NCBI GenBank assembly: GCA_050248995.1
Contig: JBFWRI010000002.1
Location: 17,355-81,354, forward strand
Reading direction: 5' to 3'
DNA: 64,000 bases
Source of the DNA: Bdellovibrionales bacterium
Lineage (GTDB): Bacteria > Pseudomonadota > Alphaproteobacteria > JAIXQD01
Shown here: positions 617 through 32,347 of the stretch, piece by piece
How positions within the stretch are numbered: position 1 is the stretch's first letter
Layout: each line of letters opens with the position of its first letter
Notes under the pieces: generated by a model
What the model was told of the DNA's origin: nothing
The model's database searches: none
What the model saw: only the letters and a program-made list of their open reading frames with translations
Made by a program: the position numbers and the translations under genes

Positions 617-650
617 AATGATCGAGTAGATTAATCAGCTAATTATAAGA

Positions 651-766
651 CCTGGCAACGACCTACTCTCCCGTACCTTAAGGCACAGTACCATTGGCGC
701 TGGAGACTTTCACGGCCGAGTTCGGGATGGGATCGGGTGCAGATTCTCCGCTATGGTCACCAGGTC
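651..766 (-). rRNA. rrf: 5S ribosomal RNA
   Basis: The reverse complement reads CCTGGTGACCATAGCG...CCGAACTCGGCCGTGAAA..., typical of 5S rRNA. It lies at the 3' end of the rRNA operon. Confidence 0.85.
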
Positions 767-875
767 ATATAATTAGCTGGTTTTAAATCGTAGTGCAAAA
801 GTCAGTGACTTTATTCATGCGCGTCACGCACTGAGAAATTTCTTCGCCGCCAAATGCATGGCCTGCGAAAGTAGG

Positions 876-3625
<2,750 letters not shown>

Positions 3626-3857
3626 TTCTCAGCGTTTATACACGACCGAACGGAAAGTTACGGTCGTATAAACGGTTGTGCGTGACGCGCAGAAACAAAG
3701 CCACTGTTGGAGCACGGGTTCGTATCCCGTGCATGACATTGTGCTTGGGCCGCTCTAGACAGCCCGCGCGTCACACTACGATTTAATCTACTCTTTACAT
3801 TGACAAAGACATCCAGCGATACGCTGAAAACAGTTGCTTCCTGTTTGATGAAGGGAT

Positions 3858-3932
3858 GGTGGAGCTAGACGGAATCGAACCGACGACATCCTGCTTGCAA
3901 AGCAGGCGCTCTACCAGCTGAGCTATAGCCCC
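3858..3932 (-). tRNA. tRNA-Ala (anticodon TGC) in the 16S-23S spacer
   Basis: The reverse complement is GGGGCTATAGCTCAGCTGGTAGAGCGCCTGCTTTGCAAGCAGG...GGTTCGATTCCGTCTAGCTCCACCA, a canonical cloverleaf. Confidence 0.9.
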
Positions 3933-3959
3933 TGAATGGTCTCATCCACGCGCGGAAAA

Positions 3960-4036
3960 TGGTGGGCCTGGTAAGATTTGAACTTACGACCTCACGCTTA
4001 TCAAGCGCGCGCTCTAACCAACTGAGCTACAAGCCC
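3960..4036 (-). tRNA. tRNA-Ile (anticodon GAT) in the 16S-23S spacer
   Basis: The reverse complement is GGGCTTGTAGCTCAGTTGGTTAGAGCGCGCGCTTGATAAGCGTGAGGTCGTAAGTTCAAATCTTACCAGGCCCACCA. Confidence 0.9.
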
Positions 4037-4122
4037 GCGCTAGACGCGCAATTCTCAAACAGTGAAGGGATACAAAGACGGCGGCAAAGTTTTCGTGAGA
4101 AAACCGTCGTTACAGGCAGTCC

Positions 4123-5626
<1,504 letters not shown>

Positions 5627-6389: not shown

Positions 6390-8042
6390 ATGGTAAGCAT
6401 GAATCAGTGCATGCGCCTTACGGTTGTATCAGGGCTTTTATTGGGTGTTTTAAGCGGGCCCGTGTGGGCACGCGACGACATTATGCCGCCACCCTCTGCC
6501 GCGCCACGCACAAAAGTGATCAGCCAGCGACTGGCCGATGGCCCGGAAGGAACATCTGCTGGCGCAAAATCTTCTCGCAACACAGCCAGCACTTCACGCG
6601 ACATGACGGGCAGTGCGCAAGCGCTTGATGGTGCAAGTCTGCGTTTGGGAAATACGGAACTGCGTCTTGCCGGCTTGATTGTGGCGCCGGTAACAACACC
6701 TGATGGTATCACTGCGCGCACTGCGCTTGATCGTCTGATTGAAGGACAAAGTTTGAATTGCGTGAGACGTGATCGCGAACGTGATGGCCGTCTTCTGGTA
6801 TCCTGCACGCGTGGTGATGGCAGTGATGTCGCTGCTGAAATGCTGCGCAACGGTGCAGCATTATACAGTCGCAGCGCAACCCTGCCAGACGCGACGGTTG
6901 CCAGCTATCGCGTCGCTGAAGGTGAAGCCCAATATAACAAGCGTGGCCTGTGGGCCAGCGTGAAATCACCCGCAGCGCCGCCGCCTGTTGTAACGGCGCA
7001 ACCCGCACCCGTGAAAGTAGCGCCGCTTCCAGCGGCACCAGCAGCAGCCGCTGCCAAAGAGCAGGCGCCACCACCAGCGAACGACAATGTTCCGGCAAAA
7101 GCAGCTGTAGCAACCGTGTCGGGCTATACAGCACCGGCACCCACCGAGAGCGGCTCGAATGTCGGCACATTTGTGATGGCCGGCGTTCTGATTGGCATCA
7201 TGCTGCTAGGGCTGGCGCTGTTCGATTTTCTGCAGCGCCGCCGCATCCGCTATGAGAGCGAACTTGAAATCCAGCAAAACCGCCAAATTGTTGCAGCCGC
7301 TATTGCCGGCGAACTGGCAGCAGCGCGCGATGTATGCGACACACGCCTGCAGACAATGGCCGGCGGCGGCGAAGCACGGTGGCCGCGCCTGCGCAGTTAT
7401 GTCTACCAGTCACATGTTGATAAGATCGGCCTAATGGGCCCATACCTGGCACGCCAGATTGCCACCATTTACGGCCAGATGGCCGACTTTGCCCCGGGCC
7501 GCGACGAGGCACCCGCCAGCCGCGAGATCGTCAACCGCAACGTACTGACAAAAACACTGGATCGCCTGTGCGGCTATATCGACACGGCGCTGGAAGGCCT
7601 GTCATACACCGAAGCCAGCGGCGAAATTTTCATGCCAAGCTTCCAGCCTGAATACCAGCAACAGGCCATCACTGATCAAACAAATGGTGGTGGCAATAAC
7701 CCGCGTGGTGGCCATAGCAAGGCGCGTATTGTGCGTACGCAGGTTCGGGCACGCCACCAGCAACTGCCCCGCCCGGCGGCCGTTCCCCAGCAGCCGCAGG
7801 CCCGCAGCAAAGAAGAAATCCACGAGGCGGTTGAAGAAGAGACGCGTGCGATCAAAGAAAAGCTGGCCAAGACGCATGGGTACAACATGGAGAGCAAGGA
7901 AAAGCCACAGCAGCCGCGTAGCGCCAAGCCCGGCCACAGTCGACGCCAACGCTTGAAGCAAGTTGCCGATATGATGGAAAAAGATATCGCCGCAATGGCG
8001 GAAGATATGTTGGCCGCTGACGAAGAAAGCCGCGCTGTATAA
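6390..8042 (+). CDS. Membrane-anchored protein with an N-terminal signal peptide and a staphylococcal-nuclease (SNase/thermonuclease)-like domain. A Pro/Ala-rich linker, one TM helix and a cytoplasmic domain of unknown function follow.
   Basis: The signal-like N-terminus is MRLTVVSGLLLGVLSGPVWA. The SNase-like block is RLGNTELRLAGLIVAP...DRERDGRLLVSCTRGDGSDVAAEMLRNGAALY...YNKRGLWA. The PA-rich linker is APPPVVTAQPAPVKVAPLPAAPAAAAA. The TM helix is FVMAGVLIGIMLLGLALFDFL. The start may instead be at internal Met 6399 or 6411. Confidence 0.6.
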   Translation: MVSMNQCMRLTVVSGLLLGVLSGPVWARDDIMPPPSAAPRTKVISQRLADGPEGTSAGAKSSRNTASTSRDMTGSAQALDGASLRLGNTELRLAGLIVAPVTTPDGITARTALDRLIEGQSLNCVRRDRERDGRLLVSCTRGDGSDVAAEMLRNGAALYSRSATLPDATVASYRVAEGEAQYNKRGLWASVKSPAAPPPVVTAQPAPVKVAPLPAAPAAAAAKEQAPPPANDNVPAKAAVATVSGYTAPAPTESGSNVGTFVMAGVLIGIMLLGLALFDFLQRRRIRYESELEIQQNRQIVAAAIAGELAAARDVCDTRLQTMAGGGEARWPRLRSYVYQSHVDKIGLMGPYLARQIATIYGQMADFAPGRDEAPASREIVNRNVLTKTLDRLCGYIDTALEGLSYTEASGEIFMPSFQPEYQQQAITDQTNGGGNNPRGGHSKARIVRTQVRARHQQLPRPAAVPQQPQARSKEEIHEAVEEETRAIKEKLAKTHGYNMESKEKPQQPRSAKPGHSRRQRLKQVADMMEKDIAAMAEDMLAADEESRAV

Positions 8043-8765
8043 TTAGTACATATGCATCCCGCCGTTAATCGACAGCGCGGAACCTGTGATAAACCCGGCC
8101 TCGTCGGCAGCAAGGAATACGACTGCGCGGGCGATCTCGTCAGCCTGGCCCAAACGGCCCACAGGAATTTTTCCGACCAGTTTTGTCAGAACATCTGCCG
8201 GCACGTTCTTCAAAAGATCGGTATCGATGTAACCGGGCGTAATCGTGTTGACGGCAATGCCCTTGGCGGCGCTTTCCAGCGCCAGTGACTTGGTGAAGCC
8301 ATGCACCCCTGCCTTAGCCGCCGAATAATTTGTCAGACCATACTGGCCGCTTTCGCCATTGATGCTCCCGATATTGATGATACGGCCAAAACCACGGGCA
8401 CGCATGCCCTCGATTACACTGCGGCAGGTGTTGAACACACTGGTCAGGTTGGTGCGGATCACGGCATCCCATTGCTCGAATGTCATCTTGTGAAGGGTCG
8501 CGTCTTTTGAGATACCGGCGTTGTTAACAAGAATTTCAATCGGGCCGTATTCATCCTCGATCTTCTTGATACCAGCTTGCACCGCAGCGAAGTCGCTGAC
8601 GTCGAATTTGGCAGTCGGAATGCCGGTTTGTTTGGTGAAAGACGTAGCGGCTGCGTCATTGCCATTATAGTTAGCCACAACCTTATAACCCGCCGCTTTC
8701 AGCGCTACAGCTGCGGCTGCGCCAATACCACGCGTCGCGCCGGTTACCAATGCCAGACGTGCCAT
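8043..8765 (-). CDS. phaB: Acetoacetyl-CoA reductase (SDR family)
   Basis: 240 aa. The SDR glycine motif is TGATRGIG, the catalytic block is YSAAKAG, and the NNAG motif is present. Length and context with phaA, phaC and phaR fit. Confidence 0.85.
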   Translation of the reverse strand: MARLALVTGATRGIGAAAAVALKAAGYKVVANYNGNDAAATSFTKQTGIPTAKFDVSDFAAVQAGIKKIEDEYGPIEILVNNAGISKDATLHKMTFEQWDAVIRTNLTSVFNTCRSVIEGMRARGFGRIINIGSINGESGQYGLTNYSAAKAGVHGFTKSLALESAAKGIAVNTITPGYIDTDLLKNVPADVLTKLVGKIPVGRLGQADEIARAVVFLAADEAGFITGSALSINGGMHMY

Positions 8766-8847
8766 AGTGCCCTCACTTTGCTTGAGTCAGCCGGTTTTAA
8801 CAGGTATTAAGCCGTCATCCAAGCACTTCTCTGTGCGGCGCAGCAAC

Positions 8848-9570
8848 TTACTGGATATTGCGCTTGATCGCATCACCGATCATACCGCCAACGCCTTGCA
8901 TCGTGTTAGCGCCGCCACCGGCTTGCCAACCCGTTTCTTTTAGGCAAGCCAGCAGTGCGCTGGTCGGACGCCAGCCGCATGCGGGCTGGCCGCCCGGCCC
9001 CTGTACGACTTCGCAATGACCAAGCTTCTGGAAACAGGCGTAACTGTCACGCCATTCGCAGGTACTCATAATATTCCCGGCTTCGGCTTTATTTAGACAA
9101 AGCTGCTTGCTGCATCCGGCAATGACGCATTCAAAGTTTTGCGGGACGGCTGATGGCGGAACAAGATTGGGGTTAGGCATTGGCACAGGCGTCGGGAGTT
9201 GCACAGTCGGCTGGGGCGGCTGCGCAACCGTTGGCGGCACTGGTGCAGCAGGGGCGGCCTGTGCTGGCTGCGATCCGGGCAGGGTAAAAGATCCATCACC
9301 CCTAGGAAGCGCTTTCTCTTCAAGGCATTTCTGCAAGGCTGGCGTTGTGCGCCAACCGCATGACCGGGCGGTATGGTTTGCGCGCTCACAGACACCGTAG
9401 GAGCGATAGCACTCGTCCGTTACCTTCGGGTTGCACTTGAATTTTGCAAACACAGACATCTCTGTTGTGACGCAGGTGTCATTGCAGATGACCACGCAGC
9501 CGCTTGTTGTGGCAGCAGACGCAGAACCAACCGAAAGAGTTAGAAGAAGCAGGGCGAACAGTATTCTCAT
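8848..9570 (-). CDS. Secreted cysteine-rich protein with two copies of an 8-Cys domain separated by a Pro-rich linker
   Basis: The signal peptide is MRILFALLLLTLSVGSASA. Domain 1 is CVVICNDTCV...KFKCNPKVTDECYRSYGVCERANHTARSCGWRTTPALQKCLEE. The linker is AAPAAPVPPTVAQPPQPTVQLPTPVPMPNPNLVPP. Domain 2 is CVIAGCSKQLC...STCEWRDSYACFQKLGHCEVV...ACGWRPTSALLACLKE. Confidence 0.6.
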   Translation of the reverse strand: MRILFALLLLTLSVGSASAATTSGCVVICNDTCVTTEMSVFAKFKCNPKVTDECYRSYGVCERANHTARSCGWRTTPALQKCLEEKALPRGDGSFTLPGSQPAQAAPAAPVPPTVAQPPQPTVQLPTPVPMPNPNLVPPSAVPQNFECVIAGCSKQLCLNKAEAGNIMSTCEWRDSYACFQKLGHCEVVQGPGGQPACGWRPTSALLACLKETGWQAGGGANTMQGVGGMIGDAIKRNIQ

Positions 9571-9932
9571 CAGTCCCTCAGTGAACGCTCGGTCCGTGTC
9601 TCGCAGCCTTCTGTAAAACTGGGCGTCATGAAAAGCACATATTTCATATCACCGATGTAACCATACTCTGTTTCGCGCGGCACAAGAACAGCATCTGTCG
9701 CTTTAACTTGAAAGCGTTCACCGCCAACCATGAACTCGCCTGCGCCGTCGATTATATAATAAAATAAGTCACTTGTATGGCAGGTCGATAGTTTGTGCTC
9801 GTGTCCCTTGGATTCAAGGTAAGATACGCAACAACGCGAAAACTGCTCATGCGAATTATAGGAATAGCCTTTCAGCTGCCCGAACAGTTCAAAGACTTTG
9901 GCCCTGTCGCGCGTGAAGTGGTATTGCGGCAC
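9570..9932 (-). CDS. Small cupin-like protein (hypothetical)
   Basis: 120 aa with a GTG start. The block YYIIDGAGEFMVGGERFQVKATDAVLVP resembles a cupin beta-barrel motif. It sits tightly packed between the two Cys-rich genes. Confidence 0.5.
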   Translation of the reverse strand: MPQYHFTRDRAKVFELFGQLKGYSYNSHEQFSRCCVSYLESKGHEHKLSTCHTSDLFYYIIDGAGEFMVGGERFQVKATDAVLVPRETEYGYIGDMKYVLFMTPSFTEGCETRTERSLRD

Positions 9933-10217
9933 TTACATCTCTCCTGTCTGCATGAGCCCTTGATGCAAGGCTGGGTCTTTTTCTTTCAGACATTGCAGCA
10001 GTTCGGGCGTACGGCGCCACGCACAGTCAGTTCCAGCCTTTTCGCACACGCCAAATTTCTGGAAACACATATCACTGGCTTCAGGTCCGCACATGAATTT
10101 GGCGATCCGGGCCATAGATTGCGTGACGCAGTTACTGACGCATACAACGATACATGAATCTTCTTTCGCTACTGCCGGGACCGCTACCAAAGCCAGCAGG
10201 AGTAAAAGAACCCGCAC
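9933..10217 (-). CDS. Secreted small protein carrying one copy of the same 8-Cys domain
   Basis: The GTG at 10217 gives the signal peptide MRVLLLLLALVAVPAVA. It lies 3 nt after the phaA stop; the longer ORF up to 10265 would overlap phaA. The domain is CIVVCVSNCV...KFMCGPEASDMCFQKFGVCEKAGTDCAWRRTPELLQCLKEK, which aligns with both repeats in the 240-aa neighbour. Confidence 0.55.
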   Translation of the reverse strand: MRVLLLLLALVAVPAVAKEDSCIVVCVSNCVTQSMARIAKFMCGPEASDMCFQKFGVCEKAGTDCAWRRTPELLQCLKEKDPALHQGLMQTGEM

Positions 10218-10219
10218 GC

Positions 10220-11392
10220 CTAGCGCTCGACCAGCAGGGCAACACCCATACCGCCGCCGATGCACAGTGCAGCAAGTCCTTTCTTGGCATCGCGGCGCTG
10301 CATTTCATGCAACAATGTCACCAGAATGCGGCAACCGCTGGCACCGATCGGGTGACCTAGTGCAATCGCGCCGCCGTTGACGTTGGTCTTTGATGTATCA
10401 ACACCCAATTCCTTAATAACGGCCAGTGACTGCGCAGCGAAAGCTTCGTTCAGCTCGATCAGGTCAACATCGTTCAGCGACCAACCGGCTTTTTCCAACG
10501 CTGCTTTCACAGCCGGCACCGGGCCAAGCCCCATGGTGGCCGGGTCAACGCCTGCCGTTGCAAAACCGGCGATGCGCGCCAGCGGCGTCAGGCCACGTTT
10601 CTTGGCTTCGTCAGCTGTCATCAGCACAACTGCTGCAGCACCGTCGTTGATGCCGCTGGCGTTACCGGCTGTTACCGTGCCATCGGGCTTAAAGGCCGGC
10701 TTCAGCTTGCCCAACGCCTCGGCTGTGCTACCGGCGCGCGGGAATTCGTCATTGGCAATCGTTATGTCTTCCTTGCGACCTTTGATGACAATCGGCAGGA
10801 TCTCATCGGCAAACTTGCCGCCCTTCATAGCGGCTTCAGCCTTTTGCTGACTGGCGGCCGAAAACTCATCCTGCTGCTGGCGCGTGATCTGGTATTGTTC
10901 GGCCAGGTTTTCAGCCGTGATGCCCATGTGGTAATTGTTGAAAACATCCCACAGGCCGTCCTTGATCATGCTGTCGACCATCCTAGCGTCGCCCATTTTG
11001 ACGCCATCACGGATATTCATGACGTGCGGCGCCTGGCTCATGCTTTCCTGACCGCCCACAACCATGATACTGGCATCGCCCGCCTTGATGGCCTGTGCGC
11101 CCAGCGCAACAGCACGCAGCCCGCTGCCGCATACCTGGTTAATCGTCACAGCTGTCTTTTCCTTCGGCACACCAGCGGCAATCGCTGCCTGACGGGCCGG
11201 GTTCTGACCAACACCTGCGGTTAGCACCTGCCCCATGATGACTTCGGTCACATCGGCGGCTGTAACCTTGGCGCGCTTTAGCGCTTCGGTGATAACTGCC
11301 GAGCCCAGCTGGACCGCCGACTGGCTGGCAAGCCCCCCGTTGAAATTGCCGATCGCGGTCCGAACGGCGCTGACGATTACGATATCTGACAT
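10220..11392 (-). CDS. phaA: Acetyl-CoA acetyltransferase (biosynthetic thiolase)
   Basis: 390 aa. Thiolase hallmarks are the active-site Cys region [10 protein letters not shown], the GHPIGASG block and the C-terminal CIGGGMG. Confidence 0.9.
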
Positions 11393-11526
11393 AAGTATCT
11401 CCCTCTGCCGATAATTTAGCGCCTTTCAACGGCGGCACCAGCCTGTCTTTTTAGGCCAGAAATCAATGGGCTTGGCCTGTTAGTCCAGTTAGGCGACTTT
11501 GCATATGCCGACACACGCAGTTAATT

Positions 11527-12534
11527 TTAAGAAAATTGCCCGCGCAGCCATGCGAGGATCGGTTCGCGCACAAGTGACGCTGATTGTCGTCCAACGATCA
11601 TGCCAACGTGCCCCAATGGCACCGGCAATGGCTCGCCCTGCGGCAGAAAATCAACCAACGGCTGCGCAGCGCGCAGTGGTACAACCTGATCGCGTTCGGG
11701 CAACACAACAAGCGCCGGCACATTGATGCCTTCAGGCTTTACAATAGTGCCATCAACGCTCCACGAACCTCGATACGTTGCGTTATTCTGGAACCAGTCA
11801 ATCAGGCATGTCTGCGCCACATGCGCCGGCAGTTCGATGCCGCCATTCAGCCAGTCTTCAATCGCCACAAACAGTTCATCACAACCATCCTTGCCGGCTT
11901 TTTTGAACTTCTCGAACACCGCCATCGGCTGCATCAGGCTGAACAGGGTCTGGATCATATCAACCGTCAACGCATTGCCCTGGTTTATCCAGGGCTGGTA
12001 ACTGGCGGTCATGTTGGCAAGGCCAAGGCGTGTGGGCACAGGATAGGCGTAAAAATCCCACGGCGTTGCCATAAGGATCAGTGCATCAACTTTTTCCAAC
12101 GCGGCCGCCGCCAGTGCACTAAGGCCACCCATGCAGTAACCCAACAGCACAACGCGCTTATACTTACGCCGCGCCTGCGCAATTACCGGCACAACGTATG
12201 TTGTGATGTAGTCATCAAATGTAAACTCTTTCTCGCTGGTGCCCGGCAAGCCCCAATCCAGCAGCCACGCCGGGAACTGCTCTGCCAGCGCCCGCATAAA
12301 ACTGTTATGCGGCAGCAAATCAAGAATGGTCGAACGGTTGATATGCGACGGCACCACCAGCAGCAGCGTATCGCCTTCAACCTGCGTATAATCAAGCACG
12401 CGCGCAGCGCCCTGTTCCCAGATAACTTTCGGCGATGATGGTGGCGCGGGGTGCGGTGCCTGCTGGTACGCCTCAACACCTTTCAGCCACAGCTGCAGGT
12501 CGCCCATGCTGGCCTGCGCGGCGGCATAGAACAT
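11527..12534 (-). CDS. phaC: PHA synthase catalytic subunit, class III/IV-like alpha/beta hydrolase
   Basis: The lipase-box-like motif is GYCMGG. Blocks LLLVVPS, LDWG, FDDYI, LMATPWDF and VPALVV...GH match the class III PhaC pattern. I chose the start at Met 12534 to avoid a 175-nt overlap with the upstream gene; the longest ORF runs to 12720. Confidence 0.7.
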   Translation of the reverse strand: MFYAAAQASMGDLQLWLKGVEAYQQAPHPAPPSSPKVIWEQGAARVLDYTQVEGDTLLLVVPSHINRSTILDLLPHNSFMRALAEQFPAWLLDWGLPGTSEKEFTFDDYITTYVVPVIAQARRKYKRVVLLGYCMGGLSALAAAALEKVDALILMATPWDFYAYPVPTRLGLANMTASYQPWINQGNALTVDMIQTLFSLMQPMAVFEKFKKAGKDGCDELFVAIEDWLNGGIELPAHVAQTCLIDWFQNNATYRGSWSVDGTIVKPEGINVPALVVLPERDQVVPLRAAQPLVDFLPQGEPLPVPLGHVGMIVGRQSASLVREPILAWLRGQFS

Positions 12535-12544
12535 TTCCGAGGGA

Positions 12545-12979
12545 TCAAACGCGGCGCTTAAGCCGTTCGAGCTCAGTTTCCATTTTGACCAGTCGTTCGT
12601 GGAGAAACTCCACGCGCCGGGCCAGCTCTGCGAATAGAACATCGCGCTCGCCAGATGCAGCCCGAGCGGCCGCGGCAGGTGCTGCCGTGCCAGTGGATTG
12701 CGCTGTTGGTTTGTGCTCATGCGGTGTCTCGGTCGGCGAAGCGGATTGAATGGCCCAGCTTGCCATAAACTTTTCCCATCCTTCCATCCAATTCGCGTTC
12801 ATCGCGGCATCGGGCGCCGGCGAAGAAGCATCGGGCGCAGGATTTTCAGACTTTGTTTCGGAAGCAGGCGCGGCGGAAGCCGGCTGTGTCATGGCTGTTG
12901 CAAAGGTTTTCCAGCCTTCCTGCCACATCTGCAGCATGTTCTGGGCAATCTGTGTATAATCAGGTTGTTGCTGTGTCAT
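12545..12979 (-). CDS. Small protein with a C-terminal coiled coil; possible PhaE-like partner of the class III synthase, or a phasin
   Basis: 144 aa lying immediately upstream of and co-oriented with phaC. An Ala/Pro-rich middle is followed by an amphipathic C-terminus, LFAELARRVEFLHERLVKMETELERLKRRV. I see no family motif. Confidence 0.35.
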   Translation of the reverse strand: MTQQQPDYTQIAQNMLQMWQEGWKTFATAMTQPASAAPASETKSENPAPDASSPAPDAAMNANWMEGWEKFMASWAIQSASPTETPHEHKPTAQSTGTAAPAAAARAASGERDVLFAELARRVEFLHERLVKMETELERLKRRV

Positions 12980-13053
12980 GCCTGAAAACTAGCAAAAAAT
13001 TGAGGCTGGCGGAAGGCATTCCAAGTTACTATAGTTAATACCCAGAGGGCCTT

Positions 13054-13578
13054 ATGACTGAACCGGTAATCATCAAGAAGTACGCCAACCGCCGTCTTTA
13101 TAATACAGCTTCAAGCACCTACGTCACGCTTGAGACGCTGGCCGAAATGGTTCGTGATAATATCGATTTTATCGTCTACGACGCCAAGAGCGGCGAAGAC
13201 CTGACGCGCTCGGTGCTGACCCAGATTATCGTTGAACAGGAAGCTAAGGGCACCAACCTGCTGCCGATCGGGTTCCTGCGCCAGTTGATCAGCATGTACG
13301 GCGGCAATATGCAATGGGCCGTGCCGGGCTATCTTGACGAGATGATGAAGCACTTCGGCGAACAGCAGAAGCAGCTGCAAAGCACCTTCCAGCAAAGTTT
13401 CGGCAAACTATTCCCACCGGGCTCGCCCATGGAAGCCATCAGCAAACAGAATATGGCCCTGTTCGAACAAATGGCCGGCTTCTTCATGCCGTTCAAGCAA
13501 GCGAACGACAAAGAGCGTGAAGAGACGCTGAACGCGTTGAAGCAAAAAATGTCGAGCATGGAACGCGGCGAAAGCTAG
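13054..13578 (+). CDS. phaR: Polyhydroxyalkanoate synthesis repressor
   Basis: The N-terminus IIKKYANRRLYNTASSTYVTLETLAEMV is the conserved PhaR DNA-binding region. The gene is divergent from the phaC side of the locus. Confidence 0.85.
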   Translation: MTEPVIIKKYANRRLYNTASSTYVTLETLAEMVRDNIDFIVYDAKSGEDLTRSVLTQIIVEQEAKGTNLLPIGFLRQLISMYGGNMQWAVPGYLDEMMKHFGEQQKQLQSTFQQSFGKLFPPGSPMEAISKQNMALFEQMAGFFMPFKQANDKEREETLNALKQKMSSMERGES

Positions 13579-18784: not shown

Positions 18785-21777
18785 GCGTCTGGCACACTCT
18801 TAGCCGCGTCGTTCTGACGACAATCTGGGTCGTCATAATTGCGGCGGTCATTTATGCCATTCACTACGAACTAACAACAAGCCGCCTGCAGGCCGAGCTG
18901 TTCTCGCGCTATGCTAAAAATATGACGTATGAGCTGCAGGACGGCCCCAACCCGAATCTGCCCTATCCCGAAGGCGGTCCATACGATGTGCGCCTGGGCT
19001 ATACTCGTCTACCCAAGATGCTCGACACTTTAACTGTGCAGGGTTTCAAGATCATTCGCCAGCCCCGCCTCTCGCAGCCGCTACAGGAATTCATGGCTAT
19101 GGGCGGGTATGCGATATACCCGGAAAAAACCAGTGCCGGCATCACCATTCTGGGCGCTCAGGGTAACGAGCTGCACAGCCGCCGCTTTCCGACCCGCACC
19201 TTTGCGGACTATGATGAGATACCTCCCCTGGTCGCACAGACGCTTCTGTTCATCGAAAACCGCGAACTACTGGACCCGGCGACGCCGTACCGCAACCCGG
19301 CTGTTGAATGGGATCGCTTCCTGTTCGCAGCGCTGGGCCAGCTGGTGAAAGTACTCAATCCGGGCATGAATATCGGCGGCGGCAGCACACTGGCAACACA
19401 GATCGAAAAGTTCCGTCACTCGGACGAAGGTCGTACGGGCGGCATCCACGACAAACTGATCCAGATGCTATCAGCCTCGGTGCGCGCTTACCGTCAAGGC
19501 CCTCTGACCATGGAAGAACGTAAACGCGTTGTTCTGGATTATATGAACAGTACGCCGCTGACAGCCCGCGCTGGTCTTGGTGAAGTCAACGGCCTTGGTG
19601 ACGGCCTGTGGGCGTGGTTTGGTACAGAACTGAATGATGTCATTGATATGCTGTCCCGTCAGGCTAATGATGTCGAGACCTTCACGCGACAAGCCGAACT
19701 ATATAAACAGGTGCTGGCCCTGTTACTGGCGCAGCGTCGCCCGTCTTACTACCTGATTACCGATCGCGAAGCATTGAATGAACTTGCCAATACTTATCTG
19801 CAACTGCTGTCAACGGCCGGGATTATCACCCCCGCCTTGCAGAAAGTCGCAACGTCATCACCGCTGCGTTTTTCAAGTGAAGTCCATATTCCCGGCGGCG
19901 AAGACTTTGTAGCCCTGAAGGCGGCTAACGCCGTGCGGCTGGCGCTGCTGCGCACTCTCAACCTGAACAGTCTGTATGAACTGGATCGCATCGATGCAAC
20001 GGTTCACAGCACGCTTGATAGCGAAAAGCAGGACAAAGTCATCAGCCTGCTGCAAGACTTGATGGATAAATCGAAGCTGGAAGAACATGGCCTGATCGGT
20101 GAGAATCTTTTGCGGACCGACAATGATGTCAGTAAGGTTATTTACAGTTTTGTGCTGTACGAGCGCACACCTTTCGGCAACGTCGTTCGTGTTCAGGCCG
20201 ATAACCTCGACAAGCCGCTTGATCTGAATGAAGGCGCCAAGCTTGATCTGGGGTCAACCGCCAAGCTGCGCACGCTTGAAACATACCTTAGCGCCCTGGC
20301 CGACCTTTATGACCGTTATAAACAGCTGCAAAAAGCCGATCTGCAGATTGCTCAGGATGACGCAGCCGATAATCTGACGCGCTGGGTAGTCGATATGCTG
20401 CGCGCCTACCCCGATATCACGTTACAGCAGCTACTGGCATCGGCCATGACACGGCGCTATTCCGCCAGCACAAATGAAACATTTTTTACGGGCGGCGGCG
20501 CTCACACGTTTGTAAACTTCCAATCAACCGATAATGGCAAGGTCGTTTCAGTTCAGGAAGCCCTGCGCATGTCGATCAACCTGCCGTTCGTGCGCCTGAT
20601 GCGCGATGTGGTTGGCTATTATATCGCGCAAGGGCCGATTGCGCGGCGCGACATACTTGGTAACCCTGATAATCCTGCGCGCCAGGCCTATCTGGCCCGC
20701 TACGCCGATCGTGAAGGACGCACTTTCCTGAACCGTTTCTACAACGCTTACAGGAACCTGACACCTGAGGCTGCACTGGACAGACTGGCTGGCCGTGGCC
20801 GAAAGACGTGGGAAGCACAGGCAACCATCTTCCGCAGCATCAAACCCAAAGCCGGCCAGACCGCCTTCCGCAACTTTATGACGGCGCGCATGACAACGCT
20901 TGGTCTGGCCACCCCGACTTTTGAGGAAGCAAGCGCACTATACGAAAACTATGGCATGGATAAGTACAACCTTGCCGACCGGGGCTATATCGCCGGCGTC
21001 AACCCGCTGGAGCTTTGGCTTGCCGCCTATATGCAAAGCAACCCCAAGGCATCGCGCGACCAGATCCTGCAGGCCAGCGTTGAAGAGCGCCAGGCTGCCT
21101 ATGAATGGCTATTCCGCACAGGATACAAGGGCGCACAGGATACGCGCATCCGTATCCTGCTGGAGCAGGATGCCTTCAACCGCATCCACCAACACTGGGA
21201 AAAACTTGGCTACCCGTTCGACCACCTTGTGCCGTCACTGGCGACATCCATTGGCAGCAGCGCTGACCGGCCGGGCGCACTGGCCGAGCTGATGGGCATC
21301 ATTCTGAATGATGGCATCCGCATGCCGACAATCCGCGTCAGCGAAATCGAATTCGCCAAGGGCACGCCCTATGAAACGCTGTTGCGCCGCGATGGCGCCC
21401 AACAGGTGCAGGGTGAACGCGTCATACGCAGCGAGGTTGCACAGACATTGAAAGCCGCGCTGGCCGATGTGGTGGAAAACGGTACCGCTAAACGCATGAA
21501 AGGCGTTGTTGTCGACGGCGCGGGCCAACCCGTACCTATTGGCGGCAAGACGGGCACAGGCGACCACCGCTTTGAACTGTTCGGCCCCGGCGGCCGCCTG
21601 ATCTCGTCGCGCGCCGTCGCCCGCACGGCAACGTTCGTCTTCTATCTGGGCGATAAATACTTCGGAACCATTACCGCGCACGTTGAAGGCGAAGAAGCCG
21701 ACAAATACGAATTCACCAGCGGTATGGTGTCGCAGGTCCTTAAAACAATTATCGGAAAAATCGGCCCGCTGTATTAG
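18781..21777 (+). CDS. Class A penicillin-binding protein, PBP1C-like (GT51 transglycosylase plus transpeptidase)
   Basis: It has an N-terminal TM anchor. GT51 motifs are GGGSTLATQIEKF (compare GGSTITQQ) and EERKRVVLDYMN (compare KEEILELYLN). The transpeptidase motifs are STAK, STN and KTGTG. The ATGA overlap with the hisS stop indicates translational coupling. Confidence 0.7.
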   Translation: MSVWHTLSRVVLTTIWVVIIAAVIYAIHYELTTSRLQAELFSRYAKNMTYELQDGPNPNLPYPEGGPYDVRLGYTRLPKMLDTLTVQGFKIIRQPRLSQPLQEFMAMGGYAIYPEKTSAGITILGAQGNELHSRRFPTRTFADYDEIPPLVAQTLLFIENRELLDPATPYRNPAVEWDRFLFAALGQLVKVLNPGMNIGGGSTLATQIEKFRHSDEGRTGGIHDKLIQMLSASVRAYRQGPLTMEERKRVVLDYMNSTPLTARAGLGEVNGLGDGLWAWFGTELNDVIDMLSRQANDVETFTRQAELYKQVLALLLAQRRPSYYLITDREALNELANTYLQLLSTAGIITPALQKVATSSPLRFSSEVHIPGGEDFVALKAANAVRLALLRTLNLNSLYELDRIDATVHSTLDSEKQDKVISLLQDLMDKSKLEEHGLIGENLLRTDNDVSKVIYSFVLYERTPFGNVVRVQADNLDKPLDLNEGAKLDLGSTAKLRTLETYLSALADLYDRYKQLQKADLQIAQDDAADNLTRWVVDMLRAYPDITLQQLLASAMTRRYSASTNETFFTGGGAHTFVNFQSTDNGKVVSVQEALRMSINLPFVRLMRDVVGYYIAQGPIARRDILGNPDNPARQAYLARYADREGRTFLNRFYNAYRNLTPEAALDRLAGRGRKTWEAQATIFRSIKPKAGQTAFRNFMTARMTTLGLATPTFEEASALYENYGMDKYNLADRGYIAGVNPLELWLAAYMQSNPKASRDQILQASVEERQAAYEWLFRTGYKGAQDTRIRILLEQDAFNRIHQHWEKLGYPFDHLVPSLATSIGSSADRPGALAELMGIILNDGIRMPTIRVSEIEFAKGTPYETLLRRDGAQQVQGERVIRSEVAQTLKAALADVVENGTAKRMKGVVVDGAGQPVPIGGKTGTGDHRFELFGPGGRLISSRAVARTATFVFYLGDKYFGTITAHVEGEEADKYEFTSGMVSQVLKTIIGKIGPLY

Positions 21778-24700
21778 CGGTTTTTGGCAGCAGCCGGTTG
21801 TGCCTTGGCCGGCGCCTGCACCGACAGGCGCTGTTCCAGTTTCTTCAGGCGGTCTTCAAACTGCCTGTCTTTCACGTTCAGCTTCTGCTGCAGGCTGCCG
21901 TTTTCCTTCTTCAGCGCTGCATTCTCGGCTTTCAGCGCTTTCAGGTCGCCTTCCAGCGCGGCCAGACGCTTCTCAACGCTATCTTTCCAATCGAACAGCT
22001 GGGCGACCTTGGTTTGCAAGCCATCCACCATATCGATCAGCTTCTTGACGGCTTCGATGACCGGCAGCACCAACTTGTCGTATTGTACTGCCATAAAGCC
22101 TTTATCGTCACGGGTGATGACTTCCGGCAATACCTTCTCGACTTCCTGCGCGATCACACCGAAGTCGTCCTTATTATCCTTGTTCCACTTATAGTGAACA
22201 GCCTGCAGGCCTTTCACCACCAGGAAGGCATCGCGTTCGAAATTCTTCACATCATGCTTCAGGCGCGCGTCAGAGCTGTGGAAGTAACCGCCGGTCAGCA
22301 GGTTACCCGTAGCCGCAATAGCATAGCTGGCGTTCACAGCAGAGCCGTTCAGGCCGATCTTGCCGGTGAAAGTCACATCACCGCCGCTGGCTACGGTAAC
22401 ACGGGTTGTGTTTGTCGTACCAATCGTAACAGCAGCAGCTTCCTGCGCCACAATGCTAAGCGTACCAGTACCGCGATGGGTTAAAGTGCTGCCAGCGTTA
22501 GCGCCTGTATTATAACGAAGCAAGCGAAGACCATAATCGGTATAGGTATCATCGCCCACAAAGTCGATATAAGCATACCTGTTGCCCGAGCCCGCGGCGT
22601 TGACGGCAACCTCAGATGCAGAAATTGTGGTCGCGCTACTGGCTGTCAGCGAACCGGTGGCAGAGATAGCCCCCGTTACAGCAAGCGACGATGTTGTTAG
22701 CGTCGCATAAATCGAATTGTTGATGTACCAATAGTGCGCCGTGTCATTGCGATGGCGGTAGGCCCAGTTACCATCAGCGTCCAAAAAGCCGATATCATTG
22801 CTGCTGTTACCATAAACACGACCGCGCAGGGTGCCATCGCTGGTGCGCAGACCCAGGTTTACAACAGAGGCATCATTTGATTGGAGACTGAATAGAGAGG
22901 CGTTATCGCCATACATATATTGCGCGCCTGCAGCGCCGAACTTCAGGTAGTTACTATAAACGTGGACCCCACCGTCAACACGCAGGTTGCCAGGCGTATA
23001 AACACCACTGGTGAAGGCGCCGCCCTGGTTCAGGCGCAGCCAGCTGTCGTTGCTGCGGAAGGCTTCCTTGCCCTGCAGGTTGACGTTGTTGCCGGTTACC
23101 GCCAGCTTAGCCACACCGTCGGTTGTGATGGTCACCGTACCAGTACCGGCATCCACCACTTCCACACTGCTGTCACCCTCGCTGATGGTGTCGGTGGCTA
23201 CCGTGCCGGTAATGGTGCCGCTGACCGTCAGGTCGCCTGTGATGTTGGTGTTACCGGCCACGTTCAGCTTATAGGCGCCCGGATCCGAGATACCGACGCC
23301 AACGTCGCCATCGGCGGCAATACGGATACCCTTGGCGCTGGCCGACCACTGGCCGATTGTCAGGCCGCCATTTTCAACGGTGCCGCTTGAATAGACCAAT
23401 GTGCTGTCGCCAGCCACGACCATCGGGTTCCACGAAGCGCCAGTGCTGTTCGGGTTAATCGCGGTCCATTGCGTGCCATCCGTGGTGCGGATACCCCATG
23501 TCGCCGTCGCGCCCGTACCACGCTGTACGTTCAGACGTGAGCTGCTCATCGAGGTAGTGCCAAGACCAACGTCACCATTGTAGTCAAGGCGCATGCGCTC
23601 GGTTACCGACGCTGCGCCATCGGCTGTTGTGTAGAATACCAGTTGGCCCGGCATATCGTTGGTGCCGGGCGTTGTGCCGACTTCGGCCGTGATGCGCGCT
23701 GTCTCGATCGCCGTAGCGCCATCATAGGCATAGTAGCGAAGGTAACCGACATCGTCGCCCGAGCTGACGGCAGCCGCCGTGGTTGTATCACCACGGTATT
23801 TATAGAAGTTGAAGGTTCCCGGTGTTGCGTCATTGCTGTTGCGCTGCGCCATGAAGCCTGAGCCACCGGTCTCGCCACGCGAACGTATATAGGCGTTGCT
23901 AAGTGTAGTAGCGCTGCTTTGCAGTATGTCTATGGCGTAAGCGGGGCCAGTGGTGCCCATACCCAGGCGGCCACCACCCGTGAAACGGGCGATTTCGGCT
24001 ACCGTTGTATCGGTCGTGCCCGTTGAACCCCCACCATGGCCGCGAATGATGACACCCGAGCTACCGGTACCGGTCGCCGTACCACTGTTCAGGTACAGCC
24101 AGCCGCCATTGGTATCGGTTGCGCCGCTTTGTGCGCCACCGGCGGTAATGAACAGACTGTTGCCGGCGCCGCTTGACGCGCGTTCGATAGCGATGGTGCG
24201 GCTTGCACCCTGGCCAAGGGTAATTATTCCTGTCGTGGGGGCCGTCGTCGTACCGATACCCAGGCCCGTCGCGGTCAGGATCATCGCTGTGCTGCCGCCG
24301 CCCGAGTTATATTGCGTGGCGTTGTGGCTACCGCCGACATACCAGGCGAAGGCACTACCTGAACGGTTGTAAAGCGTGTTACTTTGCACGCCGATGCCGT
24401 AAGAAGCGTTGTACAGGTTGACCATCTGACGCACAGCAGCACCAAAGTTCAACTCGGCCGTGCCCACGATGTCGATATCATCAACATCAACCGTCAGCGC
24501 GGCAGTGCCGTCAGCTGTTACCGCGATGCTGCCGGTGCCTGCGTCGGTTACCGTAACGCTGCTGTCACCCTGCGTGATGCTGTTGCTGGCCACTGTGCCC
24601 GTTATGGTGCCGCTGACCGTCAGGTCGCCGGTGATGTTGGTGTTACCGGCCACGTTCAACTTATAGGCGCCGGGATCCGAGATGCCGATACCGATATCGC

Positions 24701-27700
24701 CGTCAGAGGCGATGCGCAAACCCTTGGCGCTGGCCGACCATGGGCCGATCGTCAACGCGCCGGTATCAATGCTGCCGTTGCTGTATGTTAACAGGAAGTC
24801 CCCTGCGGCTGTGAGTGTATTTGACGCGCCCGCCGATGCGTTGGGGTTGATTGATAAAAATTGCGTTCCATCGGTAAACTGCGCAGCTGCAGTGGCGCTG
24901 GCGCCGGCCGAACGTATAACATGCAGCTTTGTTGTTGGCGTTGATGTACCAACACCCACCAGGCCGGCCGCCGTTACGTTCAGCGGCAGTGAGCCTACGG
25001 CAGCACTTACGCCAATCCCCAGCACATCATCGGCTGCATCGGTCACATAGAAGTTGGCAAATGGGGTTGTGCCCGTGCCATCCGATTCACGAATAACAAA
25101 GCCATACTGGTCGTCTTCAGGTCGCACTTCGATCCAGCTTTGTGTTCCGCTTCCTGAAACCGTACTAATCACAAGAGAGCCGTTGGCAGCGGTGAAGAGA
25201 TCGGCGATTTCAACCGTTTCGGCGGCACCGCGGATGCGAATACCAGCCGAATTTGACATCGTATCAATATCCAACGGAGTGGCCGGTGACTGGCCGTTGA
25301 TACCGACATAGCCACTGTTGGCTGCAATCAGCGGCGTCACGGCGACGCCCGAAGTATTGGTTGTAATGATACTAATACCCGCAGCGACATAACTTGCACC
25401 TTGCGAAGCCGCAACAGCCTGAATCCATGCCGAGTTGCGGATGGTGCCGCCGCTATCGACGCCGCGGAACATCAAGGTGCCAAGGCCGTCCGATACGCTG
25501 ATGCTGTTATCCGACGGCCGCTTATCCAGAATGAAGTAGGGCCCGGTGGCGTCGGTATTGGTGTTTATAAGAACAACCTGTGAGCCATATGACTGCGCAC
25601 TGCTCATCACGGCAACGCCGCCACTCATATACATCTGCTGCGTACCGCCCGCCGTGAAACCAAGACTGTTTTCACCAACACGGTACATACCCGTATCGTT
25701 GCTGGTATCAGATGCAAACGTATAGGCAGGTGCAGCCGCTGAACCATTGGGCGCATGGATAAAGGCCGTTGATGTAACCACGCCGGCCGTAACTGTCAGT
25801 TCATCAGCGCCGCCGTCGGCATCCAGCACGATGTTACCAGTGCCGGCATCCGTGACTGTGGCATGGCTATCGCCTTCGGTGATGGCATTGCCCGAACCGC
25901 CACCGCCACTAAGAGAATTCAGCGCGGTCCAGCTGCCGCCGCTGTCTTTGTATTCAATCGCACCGGCGTTATCACGGATACCGTAACCTGTGCTGCCAAC
26001 CGTACTATCGAAGTTGATATAGCCGCTGGCCGGATGAACAACGTTGCCCGTAAAAGTGGCCTCGCCGTTCGTTAGATTGATCGTGAAGACATGTGCTTCG
26101 AAAGCGGTTGCCGCCGCGTTCCAGCGCGACAGGTAGAAGACATCGTCCCACGACTGGATATTCATTGCCTTGCCGTTGGCACCATTGTTATCGAGGAACG
26201 CCATATTGGCGCGGATCAAGGCAGCGCCATTTACGTCAAGCTTCATGGCCGGAGAATCGGTGCCGATGCCTACATATCCGGTTGCTGAGTCCGCCGCCAT
26301 GATGGGGTTGTGAACAACGCCACTGAACGAGTCGGTTGTATCCTGCAACAACAACTTGCCAGCGCCATTCAGCGCCCAACGGAAACCTGTTCCGTTAGCT
26401 TGAAGAAGTTCGATATCCGCGTAGTCAGAAGACGAGCGAATGACGCCAGCCACATCAAATTTCGCAGATGGGGTTGATGTGCCCACACCCACATTACCGG
26501 CTGCTGTAATATTAAATGGCAGCGAGCCTGCCGCCGCATTTACACCAATGCCCAGCACATCATCCGTAGTATCTGTGACATAGAAGTTGGCATAGGTAGT
26601 CAACGTAGAACCGTCTGATGCCCGCAGAATAAGGCCCGACGCATCGTCTTCGCCCCGCAGGTCAATATAACTGCTTGTTCCGGTGCCGCCCTTGGTGCTG
26701 ATAATTAAAGGACCGTTCGCGCCGACAAAAAGATCGGCGATTTCAACCGTTTCTGCCAAGCCGCGCAGACGCAATCCCGACGAGTTTGAAGCGGTATCAA
26801 TATCCAGCTTCGCGCCACTAGCACTGGCTGTGCCGATCGCCACGTTACCGGCCGGCATCAGGGCAATATCGCCGGCGTCAGTCGACAGGCGGAACTCAGC
26901 GCCGTTACTCATTGCCAGCAGGCCGTAACGGTCATTGCCTGTATCGTAGAGCTGCACGGTCTTGCCGTCACGCATATCGAACGACGAATTCATGCGGATA
27001 TCGCCGCTGCTGGCGGCAATCGCCACGCTGCCGCTGTCATCAAGGTTGAAATCAAGATTAACCGCGCCATCCAGCGTGATGGTGCTGCCGCTGTTGCTGA
27101 TGATTTCACCGGCAGCCAGCGTTAACGGAACAGCCGCTGTAATGCCGCCGGTCAAAGCCGTCATTACCGCAACACCATCAACGGTTGTTACAACGCTGCC
27201 CGTGCCGGCGTCGGTAACGACGACGCTGCTATCACCCTCGCTAATGCTTGTCGTACTACCGCCACCACCGCAACCGGTGCAGGTACCGCTAACCGTCAGG
27301 TCACCAGCGATAGTGACGGTGCCATCCGATGCGATTGTCAGTCGGTTATCTGTGCCGTTTGTCTTAAACGCCATCAGGTTGGTGGCGTGGTCATAGCGGA
27401 TTTGGCCGACGTTATCATCGGCATCATCGCCGAACATGATGTAGTTCATATTCGCAGCCGGTGACAGGAAGTTCAGTGCGATGTCGGCGTCATCTTCTAT
27501 GGTTATCCCGTTTGAACCATATCCGTGCGGCGTACCGCCACTGGCGCCACTGTATATATGCAGCTTGGCCAGTGGGGTGATCGAGCCACCGATACCAACC
27601 CGGCCGCTGCTGTTAATGCGCATGCGCTCGGTTACCGAGCTGGCGCCATCAGCTGTGGTGAAGAACATCAGGCGGCCTGGCATATCGTTGGTGCCTGGCG

Positions 27701-30685: not shown

Positions 30686-32347
30686 TTAGAAGCCTTTGGG
30701 TGGCGCTGGCGTAAACAGCCCATAGTCGTTATTCAGAACACGACGGCGCGGGCTGGCGGCCTGGCTGGCAGCTTCAGGCGTATTCAGTTCGACAGCAGCG
30801 CGATGCAGGTCTAGCGGCGCGCCAACCAGCGCCTGAAGATCACCAAGATTATAAGCAACGTTCTCGGCCGTAGCCGCAAGCTGGCCAGCCGTATCCGCAT
30901 CGATATTCACGCGCATATCATTACCAACACCATTGGCGCTACCACCAAGCAATGCCGCATCTTGCGGAACTGCATAGGGCGCTGATGGTTGCAAGCCATC
31001 AAGCAGCGACGGGTTAACCGGGATTGCCTGCAGCATTTCATACTGAAGTTTCTGGGCGCGCGCCTGCAGAGCAGCGGCGTCCTGTAAATGAAGCATGTTG
31101 TTCGGCACAGCCCCGAAGTATGCGCCTGCCGCAACATCCGGAATTTTTATTTTATTGCCGGCGGCGATTTCTTTCATCAGCGCGGTGCCGTATAGCGGCG
31201 ACTTACCGCTTATTTCTGAATCAAGCACATTCGAGAACTCGGCCGAGGCTTTTTCCATAGCATCAGCAACAGCTCCCAGTTTAGCATCCTGCGCGATTCC
31301 CGGGGGGACACCTTCACCTTCGTAGACATCGTAGATTTCATCAACTTTCTGAATCAGTTCACGCGCCTTGTTGGCTGATAATGGTTCGCCTGTCACATCA
31401 TCTTTGATAGCATGCCGAACGCGCTCAAGCTCGTAAGTAGCTATCGCATCGTTCATCGCAGTGACAAAAGAGGCCTGTTCTTCAGGCGACAATAAGTTTG
31501 CAAGCGCAGCCTGAAGTGTGTCATCAAGGTTATTAGTATATGACACATCACCATCGAGGTCAGCGACACCGGCTATTGCATTTAAGTCGCCTACATTTAA
31601 GCCGTTTGCGCCATCACCAACGACACCACGTGCATGTAACGGCGAGACAGGGACGCTAGGGTCGTTATCAACATCCGGACCTAGGCCGATGCGATTGAAG
31701 CCCGGAGAGACATTAGCGGGAAGATCGTCATCAAGGTCAGGCCGGGGGCCGAGGCCGTCCGGTTGCGGTTTGGTGGAATTCTGTTTTGCACCAGCGCCGG
31801 GCTTGCCGCCTTTGTTCTTGTTAAAAAACTTCAGCAGCGGTTTAAGAACCCAGTGGAACAAGACAATCGCCAGACAGACGAGCGCTGCACCCGATGTAAA
31901 GCTGGCAAGCAGGCCGGACACTGACATTGCTGCGCCAGCATTTCCACCAATACCGAATAACGTCAGAGCCTGCGGCGGCAACATCCCGATCACCACATTG
32001 CTGGTCAGGGCAACAGCCGCACCGCCACCAGCGATCATGGCACCGTTAGAAACCAGTACGCTTCTAAATTCCAAATCTTTCTTTTGCTTCGCTGCTGCTT
32101 CCGATGCGGCCGCATTGTTGGCCAGCGCTGCTTCTGTTGCCGCGCCGCTTTGTGCCTGAATCTGTGCTTGCTGGGCAAGCAGGTGCATCATCTGTTCATG
32201 GCGCGCATCAGCGGCTTCATTTGCTTCGCGCGCCTGCTGCTCCATCCGCGCCGCGAAATCGACAGGCGTCCCCGCTGCCGGCGCCGCAGCATTACTTGCG
32301 GGTGGTGCTTGTGTTCGAGGATCTTGCGTTGTTGTTACCAAAGCCAA
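30686..32347 (-). CDS. Hypothetical Ala/Gly-rich membrane protein (553 aa)
   Basis: It uses a TTG start with no clear SD. The Ala/Gln-rich N-terminus is followed by 2-3 TM helices (GAMIAGGGAAVALTSNVVIGML and LVCLAIVLFHWVL) and a long acidic soluble region. I see no family motif. The gene is separated from its neighbours by AT-rich spacers. Confidence 0.55.
   Translation of the reverse strand: MALVTTTQDPRTQAPPASNAAAPAAGTPVDFAARMEQQAREANEAADARHEQMMHLLAQQAQIQAQSGAATEAALANNAAASEAAAKQKKDLEFRSVLVSNGAMIAGGGAAVALTSNVVIGMLPPQALTLFGIGGNAGAAMSVSGLLASFTSGAALVCLAIVLFHWVLKPLLKFFNKNKGGKPGAGAKQNSTKPQPDGLGPRPDLDDDLPANVSPGFNRIGLGPDVDNDPSVPVSPLHARGVVGDGANGLNVGDLNAIAGVADLDGDVSYTNNLDDTLQAALANLLSPEEQASFVTAMNDAIATYELERVRHAIKDDVTGEPLSANKARELIQKVDEIYDVYEGEGVPPGIAQDAKLGAVADAMEKASAEFSNVLDSEISGKSPLYGTALMKEIAAGNKIKIPDVAAGAYFGAVPNNMLHLQDAAALQARAQKLQYEMLQAIPVNPSLLDGLQPSAPYAVPQDAALLGGSANGVGNDMRVNIDADTAGQLAATAENVAYNLGDLQALVGAPLDLHRAAVELNTPEAASQAASPRRRVLNNDYGLFTPAPPKGF

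Follow-up and report, generated by a model that had tools for sequence, protein, structure and literature searches.

Within a 64,000-nucleotide stretch of an alphaproteobacterial assembly (GTDB lineage; contig JBFWRI010000002.1, positions 17,355 to 81,354; hereafter the window), two genes that we call cys94 and cys240 lie between phaA and phaB of a polyhydroxybutyrate (PHB) gene row, and together they encode three copies of an eight-cysteine domain. Judged by profile comparison, this domain is a member of the catalogued eight-cysteine-cluster family (heavy_Cys) rather than a new one, and part of it is a divergent variant beyond the reach of current curated models. We favour, at roughly two chances in three, a reading in which both genes encode Sec-exported, disulfide-stabilised heavy_Cys proteins that ride on housekeeping operons, so that the link to PHB is a matter of expression and not of chemistry.

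The domain occurs twice in the 240-residue product of cys240 and once in the 94-residue product of cys94, as a preliminary description of this region had proposed. The copies take two forms, for which the labels type A and type B were coined in this analysis. The two genes and their parts are as follows:

9933..10217, minus strand: cys94, a 94-residue Cys-rich protein, predicted to be exported (open reading frame (ORF) list; BLASTP to the 240-residue protein)
10167..10217, minus strand: predicted signal peptide of cys94 (sequence inspection)
9978..10160, minus strand: copy 3, the type A domain of cys94, with a short tail after it (alignment)
8848..9570, minus strand: cys240, a 240-residue Cys-rich protein, predicted to be exported (ORF list; precomputed PF27854; TIGR04289 at residues 147-191)
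9514..9570, minus strand: predicted signal peptide of cys240 (sequence inspection)
9310..9504, minus strand: copy 1 of cys240, type A (C-x3-C-x3-C ... FAKFKC ... CGWRTTP..CLEE; alignment)
9136..9309, minus strand: Pro-rich linker of cys240, 58 residues (sequence)
8929..9135, minus strand: copy 2 of cys240, type B (CVIAGCSKQLC ... TCEW ... CGWRPTS..CLKE; alignment and TIGR04289)

In an alignment of the three copies, which the preliminary description had named as a test able to refute its claim, all eight Cys fall in register, and the Pro-rich linker it reported between the two cys240 copies is present, 58 residues long. BLASTP of the 94-residue against the 240-residue protein gave E values of 1e-20 to copy 1 and 3e-8 to copy 2, far past chance; a six-frame profile scan of the 64-kb window found no fourth copy. 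The pattern proposed there needed correction. The order of the Cys and the final CL(K/E)E hold, but the spacing does not, because copy 2 opens with C-x4-C-x4-C and the interval given as x5 is x6; likewise, the WRxTP said to be invariant reads WRPTS in copy 2. The corrected pattern is C-x(3/4)-C-x(3/4)-C-x12-C-x7-C-x6-C-x(6/9/11)-C-x-W-R-x-T-x2-L-x2-C-L-[KE]-E.

Among relatives, all eight Cys columns are present in 201 of 227 domain instances. Cys2 and Cys4 are jointly missing, with the other six kept, in three instances (relatives P0061 and P0091), and because of this joint loss in three natural variants we propose a bond between them: the pattern suggests a Cys2–Cys4 disulfide. Differences between closely related strains point to constraint on the same module. 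The cys240 of contig L001, 98% identical to that of the window, differs from it at 13 nucleotides; all five nonsynonymous changes fall outside the domains (signal peptide, linker, inter-domain boundary and tail) and all six changes within the two domains are synonymous, a small sample of consistent direction that provides some evidence for selection on the cys240 domains.

Copy 2 matches the NCBIfam model TIGR04289 (‘eight-cysteine-cluster domain’, heavy_Cys) over residues 147-191 with an E value of 7.8e-9 and 36 bits, and PF27854 (Heavy_Cys_CGP) is recorded at E ≤ 1e-5 on the 240-residue product and on its 98%-identical relative, the matched copy not being specified. The PF27854 evidence is precomputed annotation of the protein collection, as the Pfam set used to scan the window was without that model; cys94 gave no Pfam or NCBIfam match. 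A profile of the three copies, a check proposed in the preliminary description, retrieved a known family: in a full HMMER search it found at least 500 cluster representatives (50% identity clusters) at E ≤ 1e-3, including 23 that reached E ≤ 1e-10, and 141 of the 149 best representatives were TIGR04289-positive. The domain had been presented as novel unless it proved to match a described family, and PF27854, TIGR04289 and the at least 500 representatives supply that match. Word-indexed protein searches returned far less, namely only its 98% twin for the 240-residue query, nothing for the 94-residue query, and only P0148, P0079 and P0151 for the type A alignment; a scan of genome contigs with the 240-residue protein found no relative.

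Most relatives, like copy 2, are type B, with the consensus CxxxGCSGQLC…STCEW…YACY…CERQ…CGWT.T.EL..CL and a C-x4-C-x4-C start. Type A, seen in copies 1 and 3 and in just 6 of 150 representatives, has a distinct N-terminal half, C-x3-C-x3-C…(I/M)A(K/R)FxC. An hhalign comparison of the two types gave a probability of 98.7% and an E value of 4e-16 over 54 columns, from Cys3 to the end of the domain, which argues strongly that they are homologous. The window proteins share with the TIGR04289/PF27854 family a domain of ~55–65 residues in which the order of the eight Cys is the same and their spacing near-equal, its occurrence singly or in tandem and its extracytoplasmic setting, and copy 2 has the family motif TCEW…CY…CE…CGW.T..L..CL. 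Type A differs from that family in having x3/x3 rather than x4/x4 and in carrying a conserved (I/M)A(K/R)FxC helix where the family has the variable loop and TCEW.

The family spans bacteria and Thermococcales archaea, and the style of some N-terminal sequences indicates that some eukaryotes probably carry it too. Its archaeal members include the CGP-CTERM-anchored Cys-rich proteins of Thermococcales (TIGR04292), which are likewise secreted or surface proteins built of repeats of the same domain. The window proteins differ from these in being bacterial and in having no CGP-CTERM signal: cys240 has a C-terminus reading …GDAIKRNIQ with no transmembrane segment, and a score of 40.7 bits against a cutoff of 200 places the proteins outside that equivalog. 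The CGP-CTERM literature does not discuss the eight-cysteine domain.

AlphaFold2 models built with family alignments reached a mean predicted local distance difference test score (pLDDT) of 89.2 for cys94 and 94.5 for copy 2, and in both the chain runs through a β-hairpin, a short helix, a second helix, another β-hairpin and a C-terminal helix. A sequence-profile search of the PDB gave just one chance match (E 0.15), and Foldseek against the PDB gave none at E ≤ 1e-3. The models thus predict, with high confidence, a fold without a solved counterpart in the PDB. The one paper found to mention the prokaryotic domain draws an analogy to the fungal, haem-binding CFEM domain (PMC10667668), with which the window domain shares eight Cys in ~60 residues and an extracellular setting. 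The likeness is in name only: no CFEM match was found in Pfam at E ≤ 1, and the models of cys94 and copy 2 contain two β-hairpins. The CFEM fold, by contrast, is an all-helical basket.

Both proteins begin with what by eye is a Sec-type signal peptide, in keeping with the preliminary description. The two signals read MRILFALLLLTLSVGSASA followed by A, and M(V)RVLLLLLALVAVPAVA followed by K (also written MRVLLLLLALVAVPAVA followed by K), and neither has a lipobox. The start of cys94 is a GTG 2 nt past the phaA stop, with a weak Shine-Dalgarno sequence. A 110-residue reading of cys94 from 10265 is less likely, as that ORF overlaps phaA by 46 nt. The twin-arginine (Tat) signal that the longer reading would contain (‘HRRRY’) was rejected because the RR lies ~12 residues from the hydrophobic core, and also because every type A relative carries a short Sec-type signal. 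The gene caller missed cys94 on the identical Logan contig L002 (there 9354..9638), hence its absence from protein collections. By a crude test, an N-terminal hydrophobic segment is present in about 126 of 150 relatives, and a Thermococcus barophilus protein annotated with the eight-cysteine domain was found in culture supernatant alone (PMC10667668). From this we infer that cys94 and cys240 are Sec-exported soluble proteins, probably periplasmic or released. After copy 2, cys240 ends in a 26-residue Gly-rich tail. An RGD tripeptide (9295..9303, minus strand; cys240 residues 90-92) stands at the opening of the Pro-rich linker (LPRGDGS) and is kept in the 98%-identical P0001; it may be a chance occurrence.

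A hint of activity comes from domain fusions. Among the best 149 relatives, heavy_Cys is fused to Kunitz domains in two (P0003, P0017), Kazal in two (P0021, P0090), pacifastin in two (P0010, P0018) and antistasin in one (P0055); other partners are Somatomedin B, VWC/TILa and SLH anchors, so that the identifiable partners are mostly extracellular disulfide modules. On these fusions we suggest that the domain acts outside the cytoplasm as a module that binds or inhibits proteins; protease inhibition is the likeliest single activity, though less than an even bet. The Kunitz/BPTI, Kazal, pacifastin and antistasin domains resemble heavy_Cys in size, Cys density, extracellular location and tandem arrangement, and each is fused to it in homologues. 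They differ from it in that the window proteins match none of them in Pfam and share no PDB fold with them. Kunitz, Kazal and pacifastin inhibitors have three disulfides and antistasin has five, whereas heavy_Cys presumably has four.

The two genes and a cupin gene lie where the preliminary description had placed them, between phaA and phaB and on the same strand. The other genes of the row and its divergent neighbour are as follows:

13054..13578, plus strand: phaR (PHB_acc_N and PHB_acc on the identical Logan contig), divergent from the PHB gene row
11527..12720, minus strand: short PhaC-like alpha/beta hydrolase (TIGR01836, 117 bits, sub-threshold; syntenic in related loci), heading the gene row
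10220..11392, minus strand: phaA, acetyl-CoA acetyltransferase, a thiolase (Thiolase_N, Thiolase_C; TIGR01930, 490 bits), directly upstream of cys94
9570..9932, minus strand: cupin, 120 residues, single domain, without a signal peptide (Cupin_2, E 1.3e-7)
8043..8765, minus strand: phaB, acetoacetyl-CoA reductase (TIGR01829, 328 bits, cutoff 302), 82 nt downstream of cys240

Read along the minus strand, the order is PhaC-like, phaA, cys94, cupin, cys240, phaB. The spacers are 2 nt between phaA and cys94, 0 nt between cys94 and the cupin gene, a 1-nt overlap between the cupin gene and cys240, and 82 nt between cys240 and phaB. The cupin gene starts with a GTG immediately after the cys94 stop, and its TGA shares the sequence TGATG with the cys240 ATG, the overlap that the preliminary description had reported. 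A consensus scan of 7900..13100 found no promoter or terminator excess over chance. Because the spacers and overlaps are so short and no such excess was seen, the natural reading is that cys94, cupin and cys240 are co-transcribed with phaA and phaB as a single transcript with translational coupling; the co-transcription proposed earlier is plausible on the same grounds. Neither cys94 nor cys240 has a Pfam or NCBIfam match to the pha accessory families (phasin, PhaR, PhaE, PhaJ).

Several features of the row are recorded as such. The cupin resembles PDB 5njn, a ‘putative cupin_2 domain-containing isomerase’ (E 2.5e-8), and its G+C content (GC) is ~0.48 as against 0.55–0.60 in its flanks. The PhaC-like protein is short (397 residues), scoring 117 bits to class III PhaC against a cutoff of 365, and PhaE is not evident. 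A 144-residue ORF with a coiled-coil-like C-terminus and no Pfam match (12545..12979, minus strand) overlaps the 5' end of the PhaC-like gene. Convergent with phaB lies a gene for a 550-residue protein (6390..8042, plus strand) that combines a signal-like N-terminus with an SNase domain and a transmembrane segment; the syntenic P0148 locus described below has an SNase protein at the corresponding position.

In related genomes, the space between phaA and phaB is occupied with differing content. A gene containing type A was found there in four of them: the window (identical to Logan contig L002), L001, L003 and the P0148 locus. L001 has phaA–cys240–phaB without cys94 and cupin; its phaA 3' end differs from that of the window by eight synonymous differences in 159 nt. 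A deletion is the simpler history for L001, because its 45-nt spacer keeps a decayed remnant of the 3' end of the cupin gene. L003 has a compact 173-residue A+B protein between phaA (with 93% identity across its final 41 residues) and phaB. The P0148 locus (JGI 3300059473) is fully syntenic (T2SSE, PAS-GGDEF-EAL, EAL, PhaR, PhaC-like, phaA, …, phaB, SNase), and its slot holds a T5orf172/MUG113 (GIY-YIG-related) gene between phaA and a 97-residue type A gene, at the place of cys94 and cupin in the window. Across the slots compared, occupants of one and the same slot are 39–52% identical. More distant alphaproteobacterial metagenome-assembled genomes, with PhaC-like proteins 35–37% identical, leave just 49 nt between phaA and phaB, with nothing in that gap, and have no copy of the domain within 14–21 kb of these loci. 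Scans of genome and metagenome contigs with the PhaC-like protein returned just such distant loci (35–37% identity), from which the slot genes are missing.

The preliminary description had asked whether homologues always accompany pha genes, and they do not, since relatives also occupy iscA–hscB and FNR-like–folD slots. Type A genes of 92–95 residues lie between iscA and hscB of the isc operon in two loci (L004 8001..8288; L013 5441..5719); they are 52% identical to each other, and their stop overlaps the hscB start. In four contigs (L005, L009, L010, L017), heavy_Cys genes, either type B alone or B+A, separate an FNR/TrxB-like reductase gene from folD, and these loci have an acyl-CoA synthetase, thiolase or PHB depolymerase within ~3 kb. 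In all neighbourhoods examined, the gene sits within a row of cytoplasmic housekeeping genes. The relatives in isc and fnr-folD operons, together with the turnover of the slot, weaken the case for a PHB-specific role. The functional tie to carbon storage drawn in the preliminary description fares poorly on the same evidence, namely the isc and FNR–folD slots, L001 without cys94 and cupin, and the distant loci with bare phaA–phaB.

Together these observations are consistent with the following course of events. The heavy_Cys copies, each a compact module of ~60 residues presumably held together by four disulfides, would be the sole folded parts of cys94 and cys240. The genes would have no promoter of their own and would be expressed by read-through and translational coupling in a phaC-like/phaA/…/phaB transcript. 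The phaA–phaB spacer would be a lineage-specific slot whose content turns over, from type A alone to type A with cupin and A-linker-B, A-linker-B, compact A+B, or T5orf172 with type A, and other family members would fill equivalent slots in isc and fnr-folD operons. Most likely, then, the PHB link concerns expression from a steadily expressed host operon and not the chemistry of PHB.

Elsewhere in the window, an rRNA operon lies at 650..5624. Its 16S rRNA (4126..5624, minus strand) is at best 87% identical to alphaproteobacterial sequences of a plasmid/chromid collection (Skermanella, Phyllobacterium, Ensifer), and is deep-branching relative to that collection, a result that indicates an uncultured member of the Alphaproteobacteria. 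A 2894-residue ORF (21774..30458, minus strand) has as its only Pfam match a C-terminal Peptidase_S74 domain (endosialidase/tail-fibre intramolecular chaperone), which suggests a giant fibre-like surface protein. Two further large ORFs, of 1144 residues (32463..35897, minus strand) and 553 residues (30686..32347, minus strand), have no Pfam match at E ≤ 1e-4.

Several points weigh against the reading of exported passengers on housekeeping operons. As regards family membership, copy 2 at 36 bits falls short of the TIGR04289 cutoff of 50, that model gives no match at E ≤ 1 for copies 1 and 3 or for the 94-residue protein, and the type-A-only relatives P0079, P0148 and P0151 have no recorded PF27854 match. 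Literature searches on TIGR04289, PF27854 and heavy_Cys found no experiment or function paper, and export, disulfides, co-transcription and activity are all inferred. Inhibitor-domain fusions occur in just ~5% of relatives and may reflect a general co-occurrence of disulfide-rich extracellular modules. Two further points concern the place of the genes. The phaA–phaB slot stays occupied in the four related genomes even though the proteins in it are just ~40% identical, which could signal a real tie to thiolase or PHB. In addition, a 38% GC genome of another lineage (L015 3808..5288; L016) has a type B gene directly behind a thiolase gene, whose product shares 45% identity with phaA, with stop and start overlapping, apparently a second and independent thiolase adjacency; an autotransporter and a leucine-rich-repeat protein are encoded nearby.

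These last two points speak for a dedicated exported factor coupled to carbon storage or thiolase metabolism and kept by phaA because it is needed when the PHB genes are on, and so do the acyl-CoA synthetase, thiolase or PHB depolymerase genes within 3 kb of the FNR–folD loci. We nevertheless regard such a factor as unlikely. The same family sits within the isc operon and between FNR and folD; distant relatives with adjacent phaA and phaB have no such gene within 14–21 kb; the content of the slot differs between strains only 2–5% diverged in DNA (1.8% in cys240, 5% at the phaA 3' end); and an extracytoplasmic protein cannot reach cytoplasmic PHB granules. Because of the second thiolase adjacency, a link to thiolase survives as a minority view. 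It is carried furthest by a reading, rather improbable to us, in which translational coupling ties heavy_Cys genes firmly to the 3' ends of genes of central metabolism (iscA, the FNR-like gene and, in two unrelated lineages, thiolase/phaA) and the linkage is itself selected. The carbon, redox or sulfur state of the cytoplasm would then set how much of a new-fold, four-disulfide binder or inhibitor is exported. The tie to thiolase would be real and not just a matter of position, and type A would form a subfamily, so far unrecognised, that is dedicated to this task. Turnover of the slot could instead mean that a mobile or homing-type cassette, inserting at the ends of housekeeping genes (thiolase, iscA, FNR), carries the Cys-rich genes as passengers, which would account for both their operon-internal position and their turnover. 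The T5orf172/MUG113 gene between phaA and the type A gene of the syntenic locus fits this idea, as do the ~600-bp presence/absence difference between near-identical strains (cys94 and most of cupin) and the low GC of the cupin gene relative to its flanks. We hold it very unlikely: a repeat search found no terminal direct or inverted repeats around the slot genes, the slot genes of the window include no endonuclease or integrase and gave no PADLOC or PHROG match, the decayed cupin 3' remnant in L001 suits simple deletion over insertion, and slot occupants are old, at 39–52% identity within a slot. Defence and phage readings were dropped, as PADLOC and PHROGs were without a match.

The isc-operon copies prompted a further alternative, a periplasmic metal or iron–sulfur (Fe-S) protein whose eight Cys would serve as ligands and not form disulfides. 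At least two genomes do carry a type A gene between iscA and hscB, with occupants 52% identical, and C-x3-C-x3-C is superficially like cluster-binding motifs. This alternative is less probable still, given that the signals are Sec-type with no twin-arginine motif beside the hydrophobic core, that the family is found mainly in extracellular multi-domain proteins beside classic disulfide modules, that the joint loss of Cys2 and Cys4 is what is expected of a disulfide pair, and that no Pfam metal-cluster family matches. Least credible of all is the proposal that cys94 is non-functional, a decaying duplicate or chance ORF beside a real cys240. It is true that cys94 was left uncalled on the identical contig, begins at a GTG preceded by a weak Shine-Dalgarno sequence, is missing in the sister strain L001 and found no match in the word-indexed protein search. 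Against this, its signal peptide is intact, it has all eight Cys and the WRxT..CLKE motif, it shares 39–46% identity with type A proteins of comparable length that stand alone in other genomes (P0079, P0148, P0151), and its AlphaFold2 model is confident.

On the favoured reading, of exported heavy_Cys proteins carried by housekeeping operons, the genes of the window belong to a large exported family with a predicted fold that lacks a solved counterpart and for which no published function was found. To this family the window adds a divergent type A that escapes both curated models, one such gene having escaped gene calling too, and it adds the repeated embedding of such genes in cytoplasmic housekeeping operons (PHB, Fe-S assembly and folate/NADPH). 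Should neither the inhibitor hint nor a selected linkage prove true, cys94 and cys240 would be ordinary hypothetical secreted proteins in a variable intergenic slot. If the inhibitor hint is true, heavy_Cys would be a new class of disulfide-rich inhibitor, and if the operon linkage is selected, it would represent an unusual tie between protein export and metabolic state.

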